DNA from: an uncultured Eubacteriales bacterium
GTDB lineage: Bacteria > Bacillota > Clostridia > Oscillospirales > CAG-272
Length of the DNA: 64,000 bases
Assembly: GCA_934446285.1 (NCBI GenBank)
Contig: CAKSEI010000001.1
Span: 6,498-70,497 of the forward strand
Direction of reading: 5' to 3'
The notes beneath the pieces are model-generated. The model worked only from the letters and a program-made list of their open reading frames with translations. It did not search any database and was not told the origin of the DNA. A program made the translations under genes and the position numbers. Positions 1 through 15,329 of this stretch are shown here, piece after piece (the first letter of the stretch is position 1; every line of letters starts with the position of its first letter).

Positions 1-685
1 AGTAAGCGGCGCTTCCTACCCCCGTAAGATGGTCGGTCATATCCTCTTTTCTTGCCTTCTTTCTCCTGCACAGCGTGAAAATCAACACGCATACAAGCGA
101 GAGTAAAAGTCCGCCGGCAAAGGCAAGGACGCAGAAAAGAGCAGCCGTGCGGCTGTCCGTCCGCCGCTCGCCCGCATACGAGAGAATTATCCCGTTCTTC
201 TCCTCCTCGAAAATGCTCTCTATCGCCTCGCGCAGCTCTTCTGCACTCTCCCGCGGCATGAGGTCTGTAAAGCATATCGAAAAAACTTTTTTCTCCCCGT
301 CCTCTGTCACGGTGTATACGGGAAAAGAGTCCGCGACGGAGGCTTCAACCCCGTCTGCGGCAGTCACAAGCTCAACCTGCCTGTTGTCCGCAAGCTCAGC
401 CTGTCTGTTTTCCCCGCCGGCATAAATATAAGTAAAGCGAAAATCCGTCTGCTCTTCCGCACGCGCAAGCATATCGGGTATAAGCCCCCTGTACTCGCCC
501 GCCTCGCGGTCATAATACTCTATCGGATAATTATCGGGGTTTCCCGCGACCAAAAGCGCGCCCGCCTCACCGCCGCCGCTCTTGTCCGCCGTGACAGCCC
601 GTGCGGGCACAGGGTAAACGGCGGCAACGCACATTAAGAGGGAGAGAACGCCGACAATCGTGCCCGCCGCCTTTCCCGCTCTCAT
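1..685 (-). CDS. Partial CDS (3' end at or beyond the left edge): secreted solute-binding-like protein with a C-terminal TM anchor; last gene of the riboswitch-controlled operon
   Basis: Absent from the ORF track because it runs off the window. The minus-strand ATG at 685-683 overlaps the TGA of the upstream gene (ATGA). The translation starts MRAGKAAGTIVGVLSLLMCVAAVYPVPARA (signal peptide). It continues GNPDNYPIEYYDREAGEYRGLIPDML (type-3 periplasmic-binding-protein-like) and then has a TM helix LFCVLAFAGGLLLSLVCVLIF. Confidence 0.55.
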   Translation of the reverse strand, partial: MRAGKAAGTIVGVLSLLMCVAAVYPVPARAVTADKSGGGEAGALLVAGNPDNYPIEYYDREAGEYRGLIPDMLARAEEQTDFRFTYIYAGGENRQAELADNRQVELVTAADGVEASVADSFPVYTVTEDGEKKVFSICFTDLMPRESAEELREAIESIFEEEKNGIILSYAGERRTDSRTAALFCVLAFAGGLLLSLVCVLIFTLCRRKKARKEDMTDHLTGVGSAAY

Positions 686-2590: not shown

Positions 2591-3678
2591 GTCCGTGCCC
2601 CCTGCGCGATACGCGCACGCTCGAGACGGTATCTTAGCATCTCGCTCGCGTATCTGTCCTTTCCGTCTATTACGTCGGCGAGCTTCTCGTATGTAAAGCC
2701 CTGACGATCAAGGCTGTCCGCAGAATTCAATCGGATATACCAGTTTGGGCTGTAGAGATTTTGCTTTAACCTCTCCTCCGTTTTTTCTCCGGGATAGGCG
2801 GCGAGGGCACTCGATGCTATCGCGGCGTACTCCCACCTTGCCGCGTCAGTGCACTCGGCAAGGGACAGAATATAATCCCGCGCCTCCTCAAGCGGGAACT
2901 TCCCGAGGTATCTTATACATGCGTATCTCACTTCGTCGTCGCGCGTCCCGTCGCGCAGCAGTCCGTAAGCAAAGCAGCCGTAACCTGAGTCGCAAAAGCG
3001 CAGATAATTTAAAAGCACCACCTGCATTGATGGGGAGAAGCCGTCAAAGCCCGCCGTGATTTTCCCGTTAAGCTCGCGTGCGCTGCCCGCGAAGTTGAGC
3101 AGTCCGTCGGAGAGCATCTTACCGTGGTAAAAGTCGGATGAAGAGTCTATCACCGTCAGAGCCTCCATGATACAGTCGGCGTCACCCGTGGTATAGAGCG
3201 CCTGCATGGCGTTCTCTCTGCAATAAATGCTCGGCGAGTGCAGCATGGATATGAGCGTCCCCGTGATGCTCGGGAAAGGTCGGTGCGCGATGAGCCTGTA
3301 TTTCTTTATAATATAAGGAAAATAAGCCGCCTCTATGCCGCCCCTGCCGCTGTAATATGCGGTAAGGGCTATTATCACGCTGTCAAGTGAATAGAGATAG
3401 TCACGCGTGCGCCCCGCATTCTCTATGTACATAGGCTCAAGCATTTTATCAAATGCTATCATATTCCCGACGCGGCGCAGCTTGCGCATCATATATTTTA
3501 AGTGCTTTTCGTCCGCTCCCGCTCTCTCTATCTGCGCCCGAACATGTCTCTCAAGCCCGGCGCTCACCCTCTCCGTGCGAACGTCGCGCCGCTTTAAGAC
3601 TACGGCGTGCACGATATTGAAGACTATCATGGACAGGCACACGGCAAGATATACGTATAAGAGGATTTCTACTTTCAT
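2587..3678 (-). CDS. Membrane-anchored alpha-helical repeat (HEAT/ARM-like) protein
   Basis: ORF 2587..3690 has a TTG start. The internal ATG at 3678 forms an ATGA overlap with the stop of the upstream gene and is preferred. It has an N-terminal TM helix (ILLYVYLAVCLSMIVFNIVHAVVL) followed by repetitive helical segments. No catalytic motif was recognised. Confidence 0.55.
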   Translation of the reverse strand: MKVEILLYVYLAVCLSMIVFNIVHAVVLKRRDVRTERVSAGLERHVRAQIERAGADEKHLKYMMRKLRRVGNMIAFDKMLEPMYIENAGRTRDYLYSLDSVIIALTAYYSGRGGIEAAYFPYIIKKYRLIAHRPFPSITGTLISMLHSPSIYCRENAMQALYTTGDADCIMEALTVIDSSSDFYHGKMLSDGLLNFAGSARELNGKITAGFDGFSPSMQVVLLNYLRFCDSGYGCFAYGLLRDGTRDDEVRYACIRYLGKFPLEEARDYILSLAECTDAARWEYAAIASSALAAYPGEKTEERLKQNLYSPNWYIRLNSADSLDRQGFTYEKLADVIDGKDRYASEMLRYRLERARIAQGART

Positions 3679-5846
3679 TTGCCGCTCCAAAGCTCCCGTA
3701 AAATATAATATGAGCTTTTCAGTCTCTCGTGGCTCGTCACCTTATTGCCCCAGCCCTTAAGCGCTACGGGAAACATTTCGCATCTGCCGCTCCGCCCCGC
3801 AGAACCTATATAGAGACTGTCTATCGTGATATACTCGACCCCGTAGTTGCCGTCGTAATAATCATCGTGAACCGACATACGCGACGGGTCGGCGAAATTG
3901 AGCAGCTGCCACGGCAGCTTTATCTCGACGCTGTCCCCCGAGAACATGAAGTCCGCAAGAGAATTGAAATCCGCGCTTTCGGGATTGGCGTTGCCGTAGG
4001 TGAGCTTGCCCGTTTCAAAGACCTCGGCGGTCGCGCCCATGTCGTTGTAAATAAGCGGGGTCGCCGTCTGCAGTATCATATCGATATTGACAAAGCGCGG
4101 CGAGGTGAGCGACGGGATGTTTTCCTTTATGTATGTATCGAAATTATATACATTCACCGAATATGTCGAACGCAGCGACTCGTATCTCTCCTGAACGGTC
4201 AGACGGCTGTTATCCCTGCCGTCGATTATGAGTAAGAAGTCGGCGGCGCGCGAAAATTTCACTTCGTAGTCCTCGCTGTAGGTGCTTCCGCTTTTCGGCG
4301 TTGAGTCTATCGGGAGCAGCAGCCGCTCACTCTCGAGCTGCACGCCCTCTTTTTTTATCATAAAATATATAAATTTCTCATCGTATTTCGCCGAAAAGGT
4401 CATGCCGTCCGAGCGCCCGACAACGTCCTCCTCCGTCCACTCGGAAAGGTCGCCGTCGACGTAGCACACCGACTTTTCCTTACCGGGGTCAAAGGAAAGA
4501 AGTCCGAAATACTGCTCGTTGGTCTGATAGTCCGACCAATACGGCGTGCGCTTGAGATTTACCGCGTACATTGTGTTCCACGTGCGCTTGAACCACTCGT
4601 CCTGCCATGTGAAAACACAGCACCCCGCGCAGCCCGCCGCCATGATGTCCTCATAGCATTCGACAAGAGCCTGACCCTGCTCGCTCTCGGACATATTACC
4701 CTGGTTTCGTCCGGTGTTTCTGTCGCGCTGCGCCATGCCCCTGCCCGTCGATACGCCGAACTCGGATATGACAACGGGCATGGTATGGTGCTTTGTCAAA
4801 AGCGAGAGATACGCCCTGTATGTGTTAAACTCCCCGTCCCCGTTTATAAACTCCGTGAGGTCGGTTATGCCGAACATGGCGAAATTCTCTACATAACTGA
4901 GATAATCGGGATAGTATGGGTAGACGTGATACGATGCGAACTGACCCGAGAGAAAGCTCTCGGTCGTCTTTATATGCTCGACGTCCACCGCGGCGCACTT
5001 CATGAAATAGTCGCGCACCTTTTCGGGATAGTCAAAAGGGTCTGTCGTAGGCCAGTTTGAAAAGGCGACGATGCGCTGCTCCTTATACCTCTTCGTCTCG
5101 TACTCTATTACCTTGTCCCCGACGTGCGCGAGCATGGCTTCAAAGGGGGTCGCATCCTCTGAGGTGTACATATATTTCCCTCTGTAGGAGTTGCGTGCGG
5201 GGTCGGCGCTGTATTTCTCGTCCGTGTATACGACCGTCACGTCCTCCCACTCGACGCCGAGGATGTAGCCTATTACCCACGGGGATATATCCTTCAGATA
5301 CGAGCCGTGACCCGCCGACGCCATGCGCCCGAGAGAGAGCTTTTTATTGCCGTGGATAACGTCTATCATTATCTTGCAGTTGTCAAGAAAGGTATCGAAA
5401 AAGTCGCTGTCATAGGCGTCCCTCGACGAATTCTGCACATAGTCATTCACCCACACGCCGTGAATAAGATAGAGCGGGTCGGGATTGTCCTTATTGAATT
5501 CGTAGAAAGCCTTGTAGAAGGTATCGTTCTGCACGGTATATATACGCAGGGTATTCGCGCCCATCTCCTTCATCTCGGCAAACCAGCGCTTGTATGTTTG
5601 CCCGTCCACGGCGAAATCCGTCGACCACTCTCCCGGCTCGCCCGAGCCCATGTTCACGCCCTTTATCTCAAAGGGCTGCCATGAGTCGCCGTCTTTTATG
5701 TAAATCTGCTCCGCATCGGTTTTTACCGCTGTCGTGACGGCTTTGCCCGGGTGAAAATCTATATAAAGACCGCCGCGGTAGTAGGCGGTGTCGAGCGCGA
5801 GATATACGGCTATGACTATGCACACGACAATAATAAACTTCTTCAT
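3675..5846 (-). CDS. Membrane-anchored glycoside-hydrolase-like (TIM-barrel-type) protein of exopolysaccharide operons
   Basis: 723 aa with an N-terminal signal anchor. FEIKGVNMGSGEPG and GANTLRIYTVQND resemble clan GH-A barrel openings (GH2/GH5/GH72 style). AAGGAGG RBS. Family assignment is not certain. Confidence 0.6.
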   Translation of the reverse strand: MKKFIIVVCIVIAVYLALDTAYYRGGLYIDFHPGKAVTTAVKTDAEQIYIKDGDSWQPFEIKGVNMGSGEPGEWSTDFAVDGQTYKRWFAEMKEMGANTLRIYTVQNDTFYKAFYEFNKDNPDPLYLIHGVWVNDYVQNSSRDAYDSDFFDTFLDNCKIMIDVIHGNKKLSLGRMASAGHGSYLKDISPWVIGYILGVEWEDVTVVYTDEKYSADPARNSYRGKYMYTSEDATPFEAMLAHVGDKVIEYETKRYKEQRIVAFSNWPTTDPFDYPEKVRDYFMKCAAVDVEHIKTTESFLSGQFASYHVYPYYPDYLSYVENFAMFGITDLTEFINGDGEFNTYRAYLSLLTKHHTMPVVISEFGVSTGRGMAQRDRNTGRNQGNMSESEQGQALVECYEDIMAAGCAGCCVFTWQDEWFKRTWNTMYAVNLKRTPYWSDYQTNEQYFGLLSFDPGKEKSVCYVDGDLSEWTEEDVVGRSDGMTFSAKYDEKFIYFMIKKEGVQLESERLLLPIDSTPKSGSTYSEDYEVKFSRAADFLLIIDGRDNSRLTVQERYESLRSTYSVNVYNFDTYIKENIPSLTSPRFVNIDMILQTATPLIYNDMGATAEVFETGKLTYGNANPESADFNSLADFMFSGDSVEIKLPWQLLNFADPSRMSVHDDYYDGNYGVEYITIDSLYIGSAGRSGRCEMFPVALKGWGNKVTSHERLKSSYYILRELWSGK

Positions 5847-5855
5847 GCCGCCTCC

Positions 5856-7340
5856 TTAGTTCGCATTCTCGACAAATTTCTTTATCTTGCTCTCCGCCGA
5901 ATACTGGCGCAGACTCTCAATATTTTCATCCATCCACTCTCCGCGCTCTGCGATAAAACTCTTCAGACTCTCTATCGCCTCATCATATGAGCGCGGATTT
6001 CGCCACGCGGGGGAGAGCACGTCGTTTTCCTTCTCAAAAGTATATCCCCACTTCTCAAAGTTGCGCTCAACGGCAGGTCCCAGATAGTCTATGCAGGAGT
6101 CTATATAGTCGTATAAAAATTCTTCGCTGAAAAATGTCCCACGCAGCTCACGGTAACGCTTTATGAGTGCGTCGGTGAAGTCCTCATCCTTTATCAGCAT
6201 GACGTACCAGAGGCAGTTCTGCATTTCAAAATTATTCGGCATCATCTTCGACTCCTGGTAGTTGTCGCACGCAGAGTTGAAGTCCCATATGCACATGCGG
6301 AATTTACCGCTTATATCCTTATAGATATAGGTCGAGAGCCAGCCCGCGTCGTAGTTGCATGTAAATTCGTTTATAAGAAAATAGTCGACAAATGACTGAG
6401 TATCTATGTACGTGTCATACCCGTCGCCCGGGTTGTCGAAATCGTAGGAATAGAGCGCTTTCTCAAAATCGGAGAAATCCTGACGGATCTCCTCGGCGAG
6501 CGCCGGGGTGCTCTTCCCCGAGCCGGGGTAAACGAGGTCGATTATATTCTTTGTGCGCAGGGAGTATTTTGAAAATGTGCGCAGATTTTTCTGCGGATTT
6601 GCTGCTCCGCGGTCAAGGCGCAGTACGTACCCCGAGAAGGAATTATTCTTCACGTCCACCGACATGCTTAACCGCGCACCGTCCTGCCCCGCCGTTATGC
6701 TTTCGCAGAGAACGTACAGCCCCATGTACTCGCCGTTTACCGTCACCTCGCAGAAGCGGACGTTCGGTGCCCAGTCCATTATCCCGCCCGCGATATTGTA
6801 CCACATATAGTTTCGCATAAGGCTCTTGTCAATAAAAGGTCCGTGCAGCACCCAGTCGGCGTGTGCGTCCATGCCGAGCATACTCTGTGCCCTGTCCGTG
6901 CCGTCGGAATTTATGAGATTGACGGCATATCCCGGCTTGTCAAAGGTACGGGAAGAATTTCCCCTTATGTGAATTGTTATCTCCGATGTAAGAGTCGGGG
7001 TGTCGGTCGGGTGATTGTATTTTTCCTCGCTGTCAAAGGTCGAAATCCTGCCTCTTATCCTGTCGCTGCCGTCGGCGGCGGTCGTGTAGCCCGTGACCTT
7101 GCCCTTTTCGTCCGTTATCGCCTTGCCGGGTATAGTCTCCTGAGTCTCTATGCTTATCACGGGAAGGTGGGTACACAGCTCGCCCTCGGAGTGCCGGGTA
7201 GTGCACGCCTGCTTTGCGGGGGCATCTTTATGCTGCTCATATCTGCCCTTATCCGCATTTCCGAATATCATCTGCCAATCAAGCAGCCCGACAAGCAGAG
7301 CTCCGCAGAGTGCGGCAAGTCCTATCGCCTTATATTTCAT
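5856..7340 (-). CDS. cotH: CotH family protein (atypical protein kinase fold), secreted or anchored
   Basis: 494 aa with a signal anchor. CotH-typical strings are FIDKSLMRNYMWYN, GEYMGLYVLCE, FVDYFLINEFTCNYDAGWLSTYIYKD and CIWDFNSACDNY. Confidence 0.8.
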   Translation of the reverse strand: MKYKAIGLAALCGALLVGLLDWQMIFGNADKGRYEQHKDAPAKQACTTRHSEGELCTHLPVISIETQETIPGKAITDEKGKVTGYTTAADGSDRIRGRISTFDSEEKYNHPTDTPTLTSEITIHIRGNSSRTFDKPGYAVNLINSDGTDRAQSMLGMDAHADWVLHGPFIDKSLMRNYMWYNIAGGIMDWAPNVRFCEVTVNGEYMGLYVLCESITAGQDGARLSMSVDVKNNSFSGYVLRLDRGAANPQKNLRTFSKYSLRTKNIIDLVYPGSGKSTPALAEEIRQDFSDFEKALYSYDFDNPGDGYDTYIDTQSFVDYFLINEFTCNYDAGWLSTYIYKDISGKFRMCIWDFNSACDNYQESKMMPNNFEMQNCLWYVMLIKDEDFTDALIKRYRELRGTFFSEEFLYDYIDSCIDYLGPAVERNFEKWGYTFEKENDVLSPAWRNPRSYDEAIESLKSFIAERGEWMDENIESLRQYSAESKIKKFVENAN

Positions 7341-8805: not shown

Positions 8806-9483
8806 TCAGTTTGAAACCTCGTCGTTCTGCATAACGGTATTGACATACTCGACGCCGCCTATCCTGTATATGCTGTCGGAAATATTGTTTTCGCTCTTTT
8901 CGGCGCGGCGCAGCATTTTCTGCGTCAGCTCGTATATAAGCTCGACCGAGCCCTCGGTCGTATTCTCCACGCGCAGAGCCGCTTTGCCGCGGAAGAGCTT
9001 ATAGACCTGTGCCTTTATGAGCGGCATCTTTGCCCTGTCCGCGCGGATGATGAAAAGTATTCTGTTATCGCTCTTTATGCAGCCGAGCACGAATATAACA
9101 ATAAAAGTCACGCAGCTGCCGACCGAGGCGACAAGATAGTCGCCCACTCCGCAGCATATGCCGACGATTATCGCCCAGAATATGTATACGGTGTCGCGCG
9201 AATCCTTTACCGCCGTTCTGAAACGGACTATCGAGAGCGCACCGACCATACCGAGGGAGAGCGCAAGATTATTTCCTATGACGGTCATGACCGTGCCCGT
9301 AAGCACGGTGAGAATGACCAGCGAGGAATTGAACTTCTTGCTGTATATCGTTCCCCTGTGAGAAATGGCATAGGAAATGAAGATGAAAAATCCGAGGGCT
9401 GCGGCAGCCGAGATGTTCATGAATATCTGCTGCCACGTCATGTCGCTCGGGTTAGTGAAAAGGCTGTATATTTTCTCTCTCAT
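8806..9483 (-). CDS. DUF4956 family integral membrane protein
   Basis: 225 aa with four or more TM helices, followed by LSIVRFRTAVKDSRDTVYIFWAI (the DUF4956 signature as I remember it). It directly abuts the next gene (TGAATG). Confidence 0.7.
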   Translation of the reverse strand: MREKIYSLFTNPSDMTWQQIFMNISAAAALGFFIFISYAISHRGTIYSKKFNSSLVILTVLTGTVMTVIGNNLALSLGMVGALSIVRFRTAVKDSRDTVYIFWAIIVGICCGVGDYLVASVGSCVTFIVIFVLGCIKSDNRILFIIRADRAKMPLIKAQVYKLFRGKAALRVENTTEGSVELIYELTQKMLRRAEKSENNISDSIYRIGGVEYVNTVMQNDEVSN

Positions 9484-9496
9484 TGTTTTTCTTCCT

Positions 9497-10195
9497 TTAT
9501 AACAGTCTCGTGAGATATCCGTCTCTGCGGGCGAGCACGTATTTGCTCACCGAAATCTCCGCGCGGTCGACGGGGTTGATAAGGCGGCGTATATAGTCGA
9601 GCAGAAATCCGTTGTACTTGACTTCGAGCACGGTATTCTGCGCGGACAGCACGGGTATCATATTAAGCTCGGGGTCGAAGAGTGCGAAGCTGCTCTCGGT
9701 CGACCTGATATCAGAGTCAAGGGTTATCCTTATGCGGTTTTCCTTTGCGATAAACGCCTTTCGGTTGTACTCAACGATTGTTTTCGGCAGATAGCACAGC
9801 CTGTGCATAAGCCCGTAGCACTCGGCGGCGAAGGGCTCGGAATACCCGAGCAGCGGGGAGTAATCGCCGCGCGTGAGCCGCTGCGCATCGGGGCGCATCA
9901 GGCGCAGCGAGCGCTTGAGCTGATTTGACCCCTGCTTTTGTTTTATCTCAAGCATGGCGAAATCCGAGAGCGTGTCGTAGCAGCGCAGACGAATCTTCCG
10001 GCGCGTCTCCGTCCCCGCGAGCTTGTCGAAATAGTCTCCGTCGTACAGGGTATCGAAATAGAGCGAGCGTATCATATACCCGCGTGAGCCGTTGTGCGGG
10101 TCGGGTGCGAGCACCTGCCCGAGCCGCCTCTCAAGGGAAGCTGCCTCGTCCGCGCGCAAAAGAAACTTCTTTTCCTCGCGCAATACACTGTTCAA
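9497..10195 (-). CDS. VTC-domain (triphosphate tunnel metalloenzyme / polyphosphate-polymerase-like) protein
   Basis: 232 aa. Alternating charged beta-strand motifs typical of TTM/VTC: EEKKFLL, YMIRSLYFDT, RRKIRLRCY, LEIKQKQG and VLEVKYNG. TTG start with a GGGGGTG RBS. Confidence 0.75.
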   Translation of the reverse strand: MNSVLREEKKFLLRADEAASLERRLGQVLAPDPHNGSRGYMIRSLYFDTLYDGDYFDKLAGTETRRKIRLRCYDTLSDFAMLEIKQKQGSNQLKRSLRLMRPDAQRLTRGDYSPLLGYSEPFAAECYGLMHRLCYLPKTIVEYNRKAFIAKENRIRITLDSDIRSTESSFALFDPELNMIPVLSAQNTVLEVKYNGFLLDYIRRLINPVDRAEISVSKYVLARRDGYLTRLL

Positions 10196-10211
10196 TACTT
10201 CACCCCCTACG

Positions 10212-10253
10212 AAAACAAAAAGACCGACCGCCTCATAAAAGAAGTGCGGTCAG
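10212..10253 (-). terminator. Intrinsic terminator forming the riboswitch expression platform
   Basis: The minus-strand RNA reads CUGACCGC-(14 nt)-GCGGUCGG followed by UCUUUUUGUUUU. It sits between the aptamer and the RBS of the VTC gene. Confidence 0.6.
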
Positions 10254-10332
10254 TCGATCATACGGTAAAACCGTTTAGACACTAAACTTTGCGTCCCTGC
10301 CTTTCGACAGGTTTGCCCGAAATACCCCGATT
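10254..10332 (-). promoter_or_regulatory. c-di-GMP-I (GEMM-I) riboswitch aptamer
   Basis: The minus-strand RNA reads GGGCAAACCUGUCGAAAGGCAGGGACGCAAAG. Its conserved positions match the remembered Vc2 aptamer GGGCAAACCAUUCGAAAGAGUGGGACGCAAAG. The downstream CUAAAC...GUAUG resembles the tetraloop-receptor halves. The P2 fold could not be fully verified by eye. Confidence 0.75.
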
Positions 10333-10340
10333 TTACGCTT

Positions 10341-10370
10341 ATTATACCACATCTGTCCGCAAAAAGTCAA
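10341..10370 (-). promoter_or_regulatory. SigA-type promoter of the riboswitch operon
   Basis: Minus strand: TTGACT (10370-10365), an 18-nt spacer, then TGgTATAAT (extended -10; hexamer 10346-10341). Confidence 0.6.
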
Positions 10371-10417
10371 GCCCTTCGCAAAAAAATCGGTGAGAAAGGG
10401 CTTTCGCAAATCGGGTG

Positions 10418-10446
10418 TTGACAATCGGCGCTCTTTGTGTTAGACT
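10418..10446 (+). promoter_or_regulatory. SigA-type promoter of the ABC-exporter leader
   Basis: TTGACA (10418-10423), a 17-nt spacer, then TAGACT (10441-10446). Confidence 0.5.
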
Positions 10447-10524
10447 GAAAGCGTAAATTACGGGCAATCAAAGACAGCGGAGATTTATCGCCGTGTCACG
10501 GCTTTTTCCCGCGGCGGGGTTAAG

Positions 10525-10620
10525 ATGATATTGCACAATTACAGCGGCAATTATTATAAAAATCGCACCGACATCGCTCTGTCGTATTCTCGTCATGCCC
10601 ATCCGAATAAATTTCTCTGA
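10525..10620 (+). CDS. Candidate 31-codon leader sORF (MILHNYSGNYYKNRTDIALSYSRHAHPNKFL)
   Basis: ATG preceded by GGCGGGG. Its TGA abuts the first base of the downstream terminator hairpin. It is too short for the ORF track, and coding status is unproven. Confidence 0.25.
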   Translation: MILHNYSGNYYKNRTDIALSYSRHAHPNKFL

Positions 10621-10651
10621 ACAGGACACGCGCGTCGCGTCCTGTTTTTTT
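10621..10651 (+). terminator. Intrinsic terminator or attenuator between the leader and the ABC exporter
   Basis: ACAGGACACGCG-CGT-CGCGTCCTGT followed by T7. It lies 33 nt before the ABC start codon. Confidence 0.7.
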
Positions 10652-10683
10652 ACCCCGCAAAAACCCGCACGGAGGAAGAGGAC

Positions 10684-12447
10684 TTGAAGAAAAACAGATT
10701 TTTATTCCTTTTGAAGCCGTTTTTCAAATACGGCAAAGGATATTTTCTGATAATGCTTATACTGCCCGTCATATGCAATGCGGTTTCCATACTCGTCTCC
10801 GTATCGATGGACAAGCAGATAATCGACTCCATAATCGCGGGAAACGGCTTTGTATATACGATAAAAACGGCGCTTTTCTGGGAGGCACTCTTTGTTGGAG
10901 TTTTCATCGCCGACTCCTTTATCACGCTTAATCTGCAGAATGTTAATTACTACAAAATCACCTCGAAAATAACGGAGGATATCTATGATAAAGCTCTGCA
11001 CACCGATGTTGCAAACACGGATTTGCCGGGCTTTTACGACTCATATTCCTATACCGTAAGAGAATATCCGGGTCTTTCCCACGCAGCCCTCACGACTCTT
11101 TCTCAGATATGCGTCTCGGTTGTCGGCGTGGCTACGGTTTTCTCCGCCGTATCGTACCTGAGTTGGTTTGCCGTCCTGCTTACCGCGCTCTATGCGCTGA
11201 CAACAATTCCGCTCGACAGAAAAACAAGCGAGCTGTCCGCAGAAAGGCGCGAACAGATGAACTCCGCCTCCCGACGGCTCGGGTATATTCAAAAGCTGTT
11301 TTATCAGAAGGAATATCTCTTCCCGTTCAGAATAACCGATTTCAGACGGCACGTGCTGCGGGATTTTCATGAGACTTATGAGAAAATAACATCTATCCAA
11401 AAGGAAAAAAATCTTAAGCTTTGTCTGATAACCGTTTTTCAGACCGTATATGCCCGCGCGATAACGCTCGTGATAATGGGCATATACATTCATCTCATAA
11501 TTTCCGGCAAGCTGTCAATCGGTTCTTTTGTCGCGGTGATGTCGGCGACAAAAATCTTAAGGAGCATATTTCACAATTTCGCCGGTCACTACAGAAAGAT
11601 ACGCGAGCTGTGCCTATCGACAAACAAGATGTACGACTTCTTCAATGTTACACCGACCATAGAAAAGCCGGGCGGAAAAAGTCTCGTCTCTGCCGCATCG
11701 GGCGATTTTGAATTGAAGCTCTCTCAGGTATCTTTTCACTATCCGAACTCGGACAGAGGCGTAAAAAGCATCGACCTCTGCATAAAAAGCGGGCAGAAAA
11801 CAGCAATAGTCGGAAAGAACGGCTCGGGGAAATCAACACTCGTCAAGCTGCTCCTGCGCCTTTACGCCCCCGACAGCGGCAGCATTACCCTTAATAATAT
11901 ACCTATAGAGGAATATGATATAAGCAACTACAGAAACTCTGTAGGAGTTGCGCTGCAGGACTCGCATATTTTCGCCTTTTCCGTCAGAGACAATCTGACA
12001 AGATATTGCGACGTCGCAGACTCAGAGATGCTGAATGCGCTTGAAAAGCTGGATTTAAAAAATGTATGCGAGATAAGCCGCGGCGATCTGAACAGGCAGC
12101 TGACAAGAGAGTTTTATGCGGACGGTATAGAGCTTTCCGGCGGTGAAAAGCAAAAAATCGCGATAGCGTCCGTTTTGGTGGGAATTTTTGATTTACTGAT
12201 ATTTGACGAGCCGACGAGCCAGCTCGACCCGATTTCCGAATACAATCTGAACAGCCTTATATTAAGTGAGTCAAATAAGAACGCGACGGTCATCATCTCA
12301 CACCGTCTGTCACTCGTTAAAAATGCCGACCTTATCCTCGTCATGAACGACGGGGAAATAGTCGAGCGCGGCACTCACGCCGATTTAATGCAAAAGGGAG
12401 GACTCTACCGTGAAATGTACGAAAAGCAGGCAAGGGAGTACACCTGA
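10684..12447 (+). CDS. ABC exporter, fused permease/ATPase (type I exporter half-transporter)
   Basis: 587 aa. Six-TM N-domain, Walker A GKNGSGKST, signature LSGGEKQKIAIA and Walker B LLIFDEPTS. TTG start with a GGAGGAAGAGG RBS. It looks visibly more AT-rich than its neighbours. Confidence 0.85.
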   Translation: MKKNRFLFLLKPFFKYGKGYFLIMLILPVICNAVSILVSVSMDKQIIDSIIAGNGFVYTIKTALFWEALFVGVFIADSFITLNLQNVNYYKITSKITEDIYDKALHTDVANTDLPGFYDSYSYTVREYPGLSHAALTTLSQICVSVVGVATVFSAVSYLSWFAVLLTALYALTTIPLDRKTSELSAERREQMNSASRRLGYIQKLFYQKEYLFPFRITDFRRHVLRDFHETYEKITSIQKEKNLKLCLITVFQTVYARAITLVIMGIYIHLIISGKLSIGSFVAVMSATKILRSIFHNFAGHYRKIRELCLSTNKMYDFFNVTPTIEKPGGKSLVSAASGDFELKLSQVSFHYPNSDRGVKSIDLCIKSGQKTAIVGKNGSGKSTLVKLLLRLYAPDSGSITLNNIPIEEYDISNYRNSVGVALQDSHIFAFSVRDNLTRYCDVADSEMLNALEKLDLKNVCEISRGDLNRQLTREFYADGIELSGGEKQKIAIASVLVGIFDLLIFDEPTSQLDPISEYNLNSLILSESNKNATVIISHRLSLVKNADLILVMNDGEIVERGTHADLMQKGGLYREMYEKQAREYT

Positions 12448-12504: not shown

Positions 12505-14613
12505 TCAGGCGGTGAAGTCGAATACGGCTTTGCCGCCGTCAAGGCGCAGGCGCGCGTCAAAGCTGCCTCCCGTGCGTGCCGAGACAAAGCCCTCTATCTT
12601 TGACGTGCTGCCGCTCTCGAGCAGCATTCTCATGTTAGAGGGAGATATGACCCTGCCGCATATCGTCATGCTCACGCCGAAACGGCAGCCCTCCTTATAT
12701 CCTCTGCAGCCGTAGCCGAACTTCGTGCGCGTAACGGCATTCCCGCACAGCGGACACCTGCCCACCTCCTCGCCGTAAAAGCCGATATCCCTATCCTTTT
12801 CCGGCGGGACTTCTTTTTTCGCGAAAACCTCCGCTATCTCAGCGCGCGCAAGCGACACCGCGTCGTCGACGCTGCTCTCACCCCTGAAAACGCGCTTGAG
12901 CGCCTTGCCCATTTCGCTTGTCTTATATTTATCCATATTTATATTCATGCGCCCGAGCGACTCTATCAGATACTCGCCCGCGGGCAGGATGGTATAGACA
13001 TCCTTTTTCAGCTGAATATATCCGCTCTTGCGCGCGTTCTCGATTATGCCCGTGCGCGTTGCCTCCGTGCCCAGCTCAAGTCCCTCGAAAAGCGCGCGGT
13101 AATCCTCGCTGTCGTCCGTCTCCGCGCCCTCCTCCGTGTCGCGCAGACGGGCTTTATCCTCTCTGAAAGGATTTTTTAAATAATTATTAAGCGTCTCTAT
13201 GGTATAGTGCTTGGGCGGGCTTGTCTGTTTTTCCTCCGCACGAAAATCGACATTTACGCTGTCTCCCCGCGAAAGGGCTGGCAGAATTTTATCCTTTGTC
13301 GGGCAGTCGTCGAACTTCGTCCACCCCTGCTCGACTATGACCGTACCCTTGAGAGTGAACTCCTCGTCCGCACACCTTACCGTCACCGTTGTGCGGTCGG
13401 CTACGCAGTCGCGCGAGCAAAAGACCGCCGTAAAGCGACTTAAGACCGCGGCGTAGACTAACTTCTCCCTGTCGGTCAGTCGCGCGGGGTCGGGGAACTT
13501 ATATGTCGGGGTGAGCGCCGAATGGCTCTCTATCTTTGAGTCGTCGAAAATGCTCTTGCCGTCCTTGAATGTCACGGGATAGCCCTTGCCCGCGACGACG
13601 GAAATTATGCTGCGTATCTTGTCCTTTTCCGCCGTGGCAAGATACTCGGAATTCGTTCGCGGATAGGTGAGATACCCGTCCTCATACAGCTTTTGCGTCA
13701 GGGCAAGCGACTCGTCCATCGGCATTTTGTACTTTTTGCCGAGATAATTCTGCAATTTCGAGAGCGAATAGAGCTTGCCCGGCTTTATCACGTCTCTTTT
13801 TTTCTTTACCGATGTGACCACTGCTCCCGCCGCATTGTACTTCTCGCACAGGGCGCGCGCCTCATCCGCCTTTTCGCGCGGGAATTTATTTTTACTCGTA
13901 AGCTCAACCGTTATTCCGTTCGTCTGAGCCTTTGAGACTGCGGCATAGTATATGTCGGGCTTGAAATTCCGTATGCTCATGTCGCGCTCGTAGATTGCGC
14001 GGACGATGGGCACGATGACCCTGCCGACACGTAAGAGCGTACCCGTGCGCAGAGTCGCATAACGCGTCAGATTGACCCCGTAAAGCCAATCGGTAAACGT
14101 GCGTGCATAGCCCTCTCCCGCAAGCAGGTCGTACTCCTTCTCGTCCTTCAGCGCCTCCGCCGACTCCCTTATCGTCTCGGGTGTCTGGTCGGGCAGCCAC
14201 ATGCGCGTGCGCCTCTTGCCCGTGACACCCGTTTTATCTATGCACAGCCTTATTATTATCTCTCCCTCGCGGTCGGCGTCTCCCGCATTGACTATCTCGT
14301 CAACGTCATCGCGCAGGCAGAGCTTTTTTATTATATTAAACTGTCTCTCAATACCGTCGTCCGCCCGTCCGTCCGCGCCCGATCGCAGCTTATAGTCGAA
14401 TTTCTCTGGAAAGCAGGGCAGATTGTCCATGCACCACCTGCCGCTCCCGCTCGGTGAATAATGCTCGATATCCTCGAGCGAAAAGAGGTGTCCGAATGCC
14501 CACGTGACGATATATCCGCCGCCCTCGAGGCAGCCGTCTCGGCGCGTGCGTGCGCCGAGTGCGGCAGCGATATTGCGGCCGAGAGACGGCTTTTCCGCTA
14601 TTATCAGCTTCAT
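12505..14613 (-). CDS. topB: DNA topoisomerase III
   Basis: 702 aa. MKLIIAEKPSLGRNIAAALG Toprim start, DADREGE, type IA core with catalytic-Tyr region LTYPRTNSEYL, and a C-terminal Cys4 zinc ribbon (CPLCG...CRGYKEGC). Confidence 0.85.
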   Translation of the reverse strand: MKLIIAEKPSLGRNIAAALGARTRRDGCLEGGGYIVTWAFGHLFSLEDIEHYSPSGSGRWCMDNLPCFPEKFDYKLRSGADGRADDGIERQFNIIKKLCLRDDVDEIVNAGDADREGEIIIRLCIDKTGVTGKRRTRMWLPDQTPETIRESAEALKDEKEYDLLAGEGYARTFTDWLYGVNLTRYATLRTGTLLRVGRVIVPIVRAIYERDMSIRNFKPDIYYAAVSKAQTNGITVELTSKNKFPREKADEARALCEKYNAAGAVVTSVKKKRDVIKPGKLYSLSKLQNYLGKKYKMPMDESLALTQKLYEDGYLTYPRTNSEYLATAEKDKIRSIISVVAGKGYPVTFKDGKSIFDDSKIESHSALTPTYKFPDPARLTDREKLVYAAVLSRFTAVFCSRDCVADRTTVTVRCADEEFTLKGTVIVEQGWTKFDDCPTKDKILPALSRGDSVNVDFRAEEKQTSPPKHYTIETLNNYLKNPFREDKARLRDTEEGAETDDSEDYRALFEGLELGTEATRTGIIENARKSGYIQLKKDVYTILPAGEYLIESLGRMNINMDKYKTSEMGKALKRVFRGESSVDDAVSLARAEIAEVFAKKEVPPEKDRDIGFYGEEVGRCPLCGNAVTRTKFGYGCRGYKEGCRFGVSMTICGRVISPSNMRMLLESGSTSKIEGFVSARTGGSFDARLRLDGGKAVFDFTA

Positions 14614-15329
14614 GTGTTTTTCTCCGATTTTTCCGTACAGTCAAATAACCGTGCAAAGCGCGGGAAGAGCGGGCGCGGCTGCATTCTGCTGCGGAAGAGT
14701 TTATCGAAAAGTCCGATTGCCGTGCCGTTGACGGGCGTGACAAGCACAGTTCCTATGCCTATGCCGCGTATTCCGCCGAAAAAGGCAAGTGACATCACAA
14801 GCGCGAGCACGAAAAAAGAAAGATCGAACGCAGTTTTGAACTTTGAGAGCGAGATACCGTACCTGCCGCTCACGCCCTTTACAAACATATCGTTTACCTG
14901 CGGCGGCAGATACGTATTAAAGCCGAGCGCGACGGCGAAGGCGGTGAGCAGCGCTCCCGCGGCGAACAGCGCAATTCTCACGGGCATATCCGTGCTGCCG
15001 GGAGCGGTGCGCGTCGGGTCGAGCAGGGGAAGCACGGCACGCCATACATCGAGCACCGCGCCGTATATTATACAGGTAGCAAATGAGAAAAGATAGGGCA
15101 GGCGGAAGCCTTTCATAACCGCACAGAAAAGCACAAACAAAAGCGCCTGAACGATATACTCTCCCCTGCCGAACGATATAAAATCAAAGCGCAGGCTCAG
15201 TATATACGGCGGCGCAACTATCATGGAAACACCGAAGTCCGCCGCGGCGGTCATGGCGACGCCGAGCGACAGCAGCGTTATCGCGATTATGTATACAGCC
15301 TCCGACGGGACTCTTAACTTCCTTTCCAT
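14610..15329 (-). CDS. Polytopic membrane protein (YczE/DUF6198-like)
   Basis: 239 aa with about six TM helices. N-terminal pattern LLSLGVAMTAAADFGVSMIVAPPYILS. Its stop overlaps the topB start (ATGA). Confidence 0.45.
   Translation of the reverse strand: MERKLRVPSEAVYIIAITLLSLGVAMTAAADFGVSMIVAPPYILSLRFDFISFGRGEYIVQALLFVLFCAVMKGFRLPYLFSFATCIIYGAVLDVWRAVLPLLDPTRTAPGSTDMPVRIALFAAGALLTAFAVALGFNTYLPPQVNDMFVKGVSGRYGISLSKFKTAFDLSFFVLALVMSLAFFGGIRGIGIGTVLVTPVNGTAIGLFDKLFRSRMQPRPLFPRFARLFDCTEKSEKNT

Follow-up and report, generated by a model that had tools for sequence, protein, structure and literature searches.

Class-I riboswitches for cyclic diguanosine monophosphate (c-di-GMP), known as GEMM-I, are the closest described relatives of the RNA analysed here. 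This RNA is the leader of an operon on the minus strand of a 64,000-nt stretch of DNA (hereafter the window) from contig CAKSEI010000001.1 of an uncultured Eubacteriales bacterium. It is very probably a class-I c-di-GMP aptamer with an overlapping terminator, serving as an ON switch for a nine-gene envelope operon with EAL feedback at its end. According to Weinberg et al. (2007), the first GEMM-I hairpin has stems of 2 and 6 bp separated by an AAA internal loop, is capped by a GNRA tetraloop and leads into an A-rich linker. In the same study, a terminator overlapped the second hairpin in 78 of 322 GEMM instances, and the ligand was predicted to raise expression. As explained by Keller et al. 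(2018; PMC6140456), G20 of the Vibrio cholerae riboswitch Vc2 recognises one guanine of the ligand by its Hoogsteen edge, and the other guanine is Watson-Crick paired with C92. The dissociation constant (Kd) of wild-type Vc2 is picomolar for c-di-GMP and about 10 micromolar for cyclic GMP-AMP (cGAMP), GEMM-Ib RNAs, which sense cGAMP, carry an A instead of G20, and the change G20A turns Vc2 bispecific (PMC6140456). The pilM riboswitch of Geobacter metallireducens is a GEMM-Ib RNA and a transcriptional ON switch, with aptamer and terminator folds that were found experimentally to be mutually exclusive. Cd1 of Clostridioides difficile, which precedes the flagellar operon, works as an OFF switch; its aptamer can form together with the terminator, and the competition comes from a separate anti-terminator. 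For the genes, the locus NELoc-2 of Clostridium perfringens strain CP4 (Lepp 2010) encodes a VTC protein of 232 amino acids (aa), a membrane protein (226 aa) and a CotH protein (497 aa), and next an unknown protein (685 aa), a HEAT protein (377 aa) and a glycosyltransferase (466 aa). According to Whitfield (2020), a module of CotH, polyphosphate polymerase and DUF4956 lies beside Gram-positive pel loci, sometimes with a diguanylate cyclase or phosphodiesterase (DGC/PDE) gene.

The window RNA shares with Vc2, the reference RNA of Rfam family RF01051, the GGCAAAC segment, a GAAA-capped P2, GACGCAAAG and a P3 with a CUAA/UAUG receptor, and it conserves G20, A47 and C92. Vc2 is reportedly an ON switch, and the ligand is likewise predicted to raise expression from the window RNA. 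The differences from Vc2 are an intrinsic terminator as the predicted platform, a Gram-positive-type leader, a host among the gut Clostridia, unrelated downstream genes and the lack of a clear P1. With pilM, the window RNA would share a ligand that prevents terminator formation, mutually exclusive folds and a short kinetic window, whereas pilM senses 3',3'-cGAMP via an A at the G20 position and the window RNA has G20. Cd1 belongs to the same aptamer class and phylum and also has an intrinsic terminator, but in the window RNA the terminator directly overlaps the aptamer. This terminator-overlap design is the one seen in the GEMM instances of Weinberg et al. (2007), in whose gene table a VTC, DUF4956, CotH or GT2 cluster is, in contrast, absent. 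NELoc-2 and window genes 1, 2 and 4-7 match in order and have similar sizes, a likeness drawn from tabulated order and sizes. Beyond the genes of NELoc-2, the window operon encodes a coiled-coil protein, a deacetylase and a sensor of GGDEF-like/EAL type. The riboswitch stands at the head of the window operon. The window operon also has the CotH/polyphosphate-polymerase/DUF4956 module of the Gram-positive pel loci, but neither pel genes nor a DUF4832 domain were found in it. Full-text literature searches of the collection available to us returned no paper linking a c-di-GMP riboswitch to a VTC/DUF4956/CotH operon.

Aptamer, terminator and direction of switching

The whole window was scanned with Rfam 15 (4227 families) at gathering thresholds. 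A match to RF01051 (c-di-GMP-I) was obtained at 10327-10242 on the minus strand, with a score of 60.4 bits (gathering threshold 35), an E-value of 2.5e-9 and model positions 1-87 of 87 covered. On sequence grounds, this confirms the window RNA as a genuine class-I c-di-GMP (GEMM-I) riboswitch, well above chance, which is the identity assigned by a first-pass annotation made from the letters of the window. The core sequence GGGCAAACCUGUCGAAAGGCAGGGACGCAAAG is present on the minus strand and GACGCAAAG forms the linker. The first hairpin reads GC/AAA/CCUGUC-GAAA-GGCAGG/GAC/GC/AA, in agreement with the GEMM-I definition, and a second hairpin with a tetraloop receptor stands alongside its GAAA loop. 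Promoter, aptamer, overlapping terminator, ribosome-binding site (RBS) and VTC gene follow in this order, which is the arrangement of a 5' untranslated region (Table 1). No c-di-GMP-II riboswitch was matched in the 64-kb window at gathering thresholds.

For comparison, the VTC protein was scanned against one genome per species, yielding 476 relatives, and the best 80 loci were retained. All of these belong to the Clostridia, mostly Oscillospiraceae-type gut metagenome-assembled genomes, with VTC identities of 61-74%; upstream sequence was present for 79. The 59 distinct leaders were aligned using MAFFT and fitted to no structure. Controls consisted of 500 shuffles for the aptamer and of slid pairing partners for both aptamer and terminator. 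In the aptamer, 91.9% of the cells are paired and 14 of 22 pairs changed on both sides; none of the 500 shuffles was as good, and slid partners gave 17-45% pairing. All six P2 stem pairs co-vary across the 59 homologues, so the P2 drawn in the first-pass annotation is consistently paired. P3 is 87-90% paired, with compensatory changes.

Based on the Rfam alignment, the ligand-contact positions G20, A47 and C92 correspond to G10317, A10290 and C10246. A47 is a ligand-contact residue in the Vc2 crystal structures. C92 is invariant in the 59 leaders and G20 is found in 51 of them. Since all three positions are present in the window RNA, c-di-GMP rather than cGAMP is indicated. The RNA thus carries the c-di-GMP signature, which points to c-di-GMP as its ligand, and the defining feature of GEMM-Ib, an A at the G20 position, is absent, as the window has G10317. 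We infer that the window RNA would bind c-di-GMP. That it instead senses 3',3'-cGAMP, or is bispecific, is hardly likely. GEMM-I and the cGAMP-sensing GEMM-Ib do share one Rfam family, and eight related leaders before the same operon have an A at G20, the change that makes Vc2 bispecific (PMC6140456); the window, however, combines G20 with C92, Vc2 with G20 binds cGAMP only at about 10 micromolar (PMC6140456), and the operon ends in an EAL domain, a c-di-GMP-specific hydrolase family.

The terminator region reads CUGACCGC-N14-GCGGUCGG and then UCUUUUUGUUUU, ending at 10212 (minus strand). A simple terminator scan, limited to loops of 3-8 nt, left the leader hairpin unlisted, its perfect arms being 14 nt apart; therefore, ViennaRNA and covariation were used instead. 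The predicted hairpin has 10+3 bp and -18.7 kcal/mol (ViennaRNA), with an inner CUU/GAG extension closing a 7-nt loop. For its 12 pairs, 92.4% of the cells in the 59 leaders are paired and 5 pairs changed on both sides, with 30-43% pairing in the slid controls. Within the terminator, 57 of the 59 leaders pair C92 with a G, and a run of at least five U follows the hairpin in nearly all of them. From the end of the U-tract (10212) to the TTG start of the VTC gene (10195) there are 16 nt. Promoter, hairpin arms, U-tract, RBS and TTG start all lie where the first-pass annotation had put them when the minus strand is read, and its overlap between the terminator 5' arm and the aptamer 3' end was recovered as well.

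The covariation bears directly on this shared strand. At columns 47/115/157, 41 leaders have U-A-U and 18 have C-G-C or C-G-U, with both pairings kept in 59/59. At columns 51/113/159, 32 leaders read A-U-A or A-U-G and another 16 have G-C-G. The 3' strand of P3 therefore co-varies with the P3 5' strand as well as with the terminator 3' arm, and the two folds are thus mutually exclusive; the alignment demonstrates the conservation and covariation of both folds together with this exclusivity. RNAalifold, supplied with no structure, returned P2, the junction pairs, upper P3 and the terminator core (columns 114-119 with 153-158), and in its consensus the terminator replaces the P3 base. The minimum-free-energy fold of the single sequence was a long-range structure unlike the aptamer and was not used as evidence. 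For the window sequence, the nearest-neighbour model gives the aptamer fold -17.9 kcal/mol and the fold containing the terminator -35.8 kcal/mol; in the fold check proposed with the first-pass annotation, the terminator is thus ahead by about 18 kcal/mol in the unliganded state. The P3 base is worth only about -2.2 kcal/mol.

As the folds are mutually exclusive, ligand binding should prevent termination, giving an ON switch. This direction had been a guess, and it now has comparative backing in the shared nucleotides that co-vary with both alternative partners. According to the proposed mechanism, the promoter would start a leader of about 140 nt, of which the first 90 nt or so would fold as the class-I c-di-GMP aptamer. 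The last 10 nt of the aptamer (the 3' strand of the P3 base and C92) would double as the terminator 5' arm, to be completed 24 nt downstream. When the ligand is absent, the weak P3 base would be displaced, the -18.7 kcal/mol terminator would form and transcription would stop at the U-tract before the VTC gene, making termination the default state. With c-di-GMP bound, the P3 strand and C92 would be held, the terminator could not nucleate and the polymerase would read into the nine-gene operon. We infer the same direction of regulation in vivo.

Terminator-bearing class-I c-di-GMP riboswitches can also be OFF switches, as exemplified by Cd1, in which case a genuine aptamer would promote termination upon c-di-GMP binding. 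For the window RNA this is very unlikely. Such a switch needs a coexisting aptamer and terminator plus a separate anti-terminator, whereas here the terminator 5' arm is made of the P3 3' strand and C92, and the shared positions co-vary with both partners. Moreover, the loop that separates C92 from the 3' arm, 8-14 nt long and variable in sequence, holds no conserved anti-terminator. A decayed or constitutive attenuator, i.e. a leader terminator beside an aptamer relic that has stopped binding ligand, has its precedents in the eroded or divergent cores of four related leaders (L044, L046, L052 and L055) and in three others keeping only a terminator remnant (L035-L037), but it is highly improbable for the window copy, which clears the gathering threshold by 25 bits with all invariant core positions in place, the compensatory changes across 59 species amounting to purifying selection on both folds. 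Just as improbable is mainly translational control by occlusion of the RBS with a hairpin that is not a working terminator, since conservation does not extend to the pairing of the RBS region with upstream leader segments seen in the single-sequence minimum-free-energy fold, the consensus fold leaves the RBS unpaired, 3-11 nt past the U-tract, and the hairpin with at least five U is kept in nearly all leaders.

The ON switch would be served by a promoter of its own, which the operon requires because its upstream neighbour is a divergent ABC-transporter gene. The predicted leader promoter has 11 of 12 consensus positions plus the extended -10 TG and ranks first among the promoter-like sites scanned over 9800-11200. 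In most related leaders, a TGnTATAAT element is found 11-30 nt upstream of G20. Transcription is predicted to start near 10334, about 7 nt past the -10 element. Given this start, UCGGGCAAACC (10320) begins about 14 nt into the transcript, and the distance of about 5 nt in the first-pass annotation has to be corrected. An 8-bp inverted repeat, AAGCCCUU (10403-10396) and AAGGGCUU (10376-10369) on the minus strand with 19 nt between the arms, extends with its 3' arm into the -35 hexamer and is adjoined by a direct repeat (UGCGAAAG / UGCGAAGG). The inverted repeat at 10369-10403 could be an operator or a chance match.

Table 1. Features of the riboswitch leader and the operon, with positions in the window
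Feature	Position	Strand	Basis or remarks
Predicted sigma-70-type promoter	10341..10370	minus	-35 TTGACT 10370-10365; 18-nt spacer; extended -10 TGgTATAAT 10349-10341
c-di-GMP-I (GEMM-I) aptamer	10242..10327	minus	RF01051 match and covariation in 59 leaders
Aptamer junction pairs	G10316-C10291, C10315-G10292	minus	Rfam alignment
P2	10311-10306 with 10301-10296, GAAA loop 10305-10302	minus	CCUGUC/GGCAGG
P3	10288-10248	minus	Rfam alignment
Tetraloop-receptor halves in P3	CUAA 10278-10275, UAUG 10262-10259	minus	Align to conserved CUAA / AuG columns of the model
Predicted intrinsic terminator hairpin	10222..10255	minus	ViennaRNA, covariation, RNAalifold
Terminator 5' arm GACUGACCGC	10255-10246	minus	P3 3' strand and C92
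Terminator 3' arm GCGGUCGGUC	10231-10222	minus	Pairs with 5' arm
U-tract UUUUUGUUUU	10212..10221	minus	Read from sequence
RBS AGGGGGUG (10208-10201) and TTG start (10195-10193) of VTC gene	10193..10208	minus	Homologues align from residue 1
Gene 1: VTC-domain protein, polyphosphate-polymerase-like, 232 aa, cytoplasmic	9497..10195	minus	PF09359, 134.9 bits
Gene 2: DUF4956 membrane protein, 225 aa, 4-5 transmembrane-like segments	8806..9483	minus	PF16316, 47 bits
Gene 3: lipoprotein-like polysaccharide deacetylase, 477 aa	7372..8805	minus	PgaB/IcaB-like, under equivalog cut-offs
Gene 4: CotH kinase-family protein, 494 aa, N-terminal anchor	5856..7340	minus	PF08757, 199 bits
Gene 5: anchored 723-aa protein, no family assignment	3675..5846	minus	Sub-threshold GH72-like match only
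Gene 6: anchored HEAT-repeat protein, longest open reading frame (ORF) 367 aa	2587..3690	minus	Called 363 aa (3678-2587) in contig L081
Gene 7: multi-pass membrane GT2 glycosyltransferase, 467 aa	1187..2590	minus	Processive-synthase-like, best PgaC/IcaA
Gene 8: small coiled-coil protein, 163-166 aa	682..1182	minus	ORF and L081 call
Gene 9: first 228 codons, runs off window start	1..685	minus	Full gene L081:11906-13855

Operon content and the ninth gene

The leader is followed by nine genes in the same direction (Table 1), which overlap or are spaced by 0-31 nt. Signal or transmembrane segments are found in seven of the nine products, so 'envelope operon', the name already used in the first-pass annotation, is a fair label for this tightly packed unit, of which the ninth gene is cut by the window edge. 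An exact-protein look-up of the GT2 glycosyltransferase led to ENA metagenome contigs with a leader 100% identical to that of the window. L081, a contig of the same organism, carries the ninth gene complete.

The deacetylase of gene 3 was found in only some related loci. The gene 5 product is 57-76% identical in all related loci long enough to include it, and a Pfam scan of its 723 aa to an E-value of 5 gave neither DUF4832 nor any other domain. No PilZ domain was found in the GT2 protein of gene 7. With 144.7 bits against the TIGR03937 cut-off of 422.3 for the GT2 protein and 132.9 bits against the TIGR03938 cut-off of 321.9 for the deacetylase, the operon falls outside the poly-N-acetylglucosamine (PNAG; pga/ica) systems, and the two proteins resemble PgaC/IcaA and PgaB/IcaB, respectively, at family level only. 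The operon products together look like surface-polymer machinery.

The ATG of gene 9 (685) overlaps the stop codon of gene 8. In L081 the complete gene encodes 649 aa, of which the first 228 are identical to the partial ORF of the window. In the product, a signal/anchor segment and a second transmembrane segment accompany a weak SBP_bac_3-like periplasmic region; it further has an EAL domain (PF00563, 188 bits) and a GGDEF-like region that is degenerate, with TDGAF in the place of GGDEF (15.7 bits, sub-threshold). The catalytic motif set of active EAL phosphodiesterases comprises E-x-L-x-R, N, E-x-x-E, DDxGTG, K, E-G-x-E and Q-G. All motifs are present in the gene 9 product, as EALSR, CNFTR, EITE, DDMGTGFSS, KIE, EGIE and QGFY, and they align to the EAL domains of MucR, MorA, DosP, TBD1265 and RocR, with E-values down to 6e-38. 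Judging from these motifs, the product is most likely a c-di-GMP phosphodiesterase. The first-pass annotation had seen no PilZ or other obvious c-di-GMP receptor in the operon and had taken the RNA as the sensing point; with the degenerate GGDEF region and the 188-bit EAL domain of gene 9, this has to be given up. Elsewhere in the window, a scan for the motifs gave no further GGDEF/EAL ORF. Since the operon ends in a probable phosphodiesterase, negative feedback on its own inducer is expected, and induction should also raise c-di-GMP hydrolysis via gene 9.

Past gene 9, L081 has 935 nt without a called gene (13856-14790), followed by an ABC-transporter pair. A second Rfam match in the window, the FMN riboswitch RF00050 at 38314-38174 on the minus strand (104.1 bits, gathering threshold 66.2, full model), is unrelated.

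Related loci and leader variants

In 63 of 79 loci, GGCAAAC...GACGCAAAG occurs 110-150 nt before the VTC start, and Rfam adds two leaders, L077 (52 bits) and L055 (36 bits). At least 65 of the 79 related Clostridia loci thereby have the riboswitch leader in front of the same operon. Among the 80 loci, the order VTC-DUF4956-(deacetylase)-CotH-X-HEAT-GT2-(coiled coil)-GGDEF/EAL sensor is kept in all that are long enough. The NELoc-2-type order VTC-DUF4956-CotH-X-HEAT-GT2 is present in the window, in these 80 loci and on a Planococcus plasmid. The link between riboswitch and operon is common in this Clostridia lineage and not universal. As the plasmid, retrieved with the VTC protein, has no c-di-GMP riboswitch upstream of the core operon, the link is lineage-specific. 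In locus L003, the homologue of the gene 9 sensor has an EAL domain of 178 bits and a GGDEF domain of 33.5 bits. The gene at L003:8748-9857 encodes a GGDEF diguanylate cyclase (369 aa, 90 bits) and has the same orientation as the riboswitch leader, which follows its end at a distance of 17 nt, an arrangement that puts a c-di-GMP synthase directly upstream of a c-di-GMP-sensing leader.

Several leaders depart from the window RNA. The eight with an A at G20 before the VTC operon (L041, L042, L048, L050, L060, L067, L070 and L074), reading UAGCAAAC, have the GEMM-Ib or bispecific signature, with the remaining aptamer and the overlapping terminator intact (e.g. L042:9872-10000). Four divergent leaders (L044:9800-10000, L046:9800-10000, L052:9800-10000 and L055:1559-1645) keep the P3 3' strand and the terminator and have a rewritten junction core, e.g. 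GGGAAAAG...GAUGCAAGG or ...GACUAUGCUGCAGGGCC. L044 and L046 are the cultured strains Hominicoprocola fusiformis CLA-AA-H269 and Oscillibacter sp. MSJ-31, respectively, with L052 and L055 among their relatives. L055 barely reaches the RF01051 threshold (36 bits) and the other three are under it; from their sequences, these leaders could be decaying copies or have an altered ligand. At L035:2190-2450, L036:2046-2306 and L037:2414-2674, there is no aptamer, and an apparent terminator 3' arm with a U-tract, UGCAGCCGGUUUUU, is left before the VTC gene, which suggests loss of the riboswitch by deletion or rearrangement. The Planococcus maritimus plasmid NZ_CP059541.1 (L085, 4470-12824), from a Bacillales species, carries the VTC-DUF4956-CotH-unknown-HEAT-GT2 core preceded by an extra 308-aa gene, and its 1.1-kb upstream gap has no c-di-GMP riboswitch.

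Weight of the evidence and biological meaning

A number of points weigh against an aptamer-terminator ON switch with feedback. The organism is known from metagenome contigs alone, and ligand binding, termination and the transcription start are predictions. A search for a conserved P1 helix that would close the junction by pairing the 5' flank with the bases past C92 gave no fixed register above background; at most, one or two pairs may form next to C92. The bound state must therefore depend on P3 and on tertiary contacts. The energies strongly favour the terminator, and the polymerase has only about 25-35 nt to go from C92, where the aptamer is complete, to the decision point at the U-tract. 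Switching must thus be kinetic, and this kinetically controlled switch would need fairly high c-di-GMP. About 14 related Clostridia loci are without a recognisable aptamer, and the Planococcus plasmid bears the operon core without the riboswitch; since the operon occurs without it in places, the RNA is not obligatory for the operon. Finally, intact EAL motifs prove no catalysis, and the gene 9 product could instead be a receptor.

Riboswitch biology gains nothing new from the RNA itself, a textbook GEMM-I aptamer whose ON platform is of the classic terminator-overlap kind. The gain is in annotation: c-di-GMP is tied to a conserved, uncharacterised operon that occurs in dozens of uncultured human-gut Clostridia and has its genes ordered as in the necrotic-enteritis locus NELoc-2 of C. 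perfringens. The 59-species leader alignment is also an unusually clean example of three-way covariation of a switching strand, and the natural variants with A20 or divergent cores are candidates for altered ligand specificity. A testable hypothesis is that the cluster builds a biofilm or surface polymer at high c-di-GMP, with negative feedback built in. The full circuit is a tentative and rather doubtful extension: c-di-GMP would induce the operon, its phosphodiesterase would lower c-di-GMP again, a pulse of an uncharacterised surface polymer would result from a c-di-GMP-induced matrix system, and sister lineages would be wired to different dinucleotides. If true, this self-limiting circuit would mark a widespread gut-Clostridia cluster as a c-di-GMP-induced matrix system, and the changed leader cores (A20 or a rewritten junction) would mean that the same operon may answer different dinucleotides across species.

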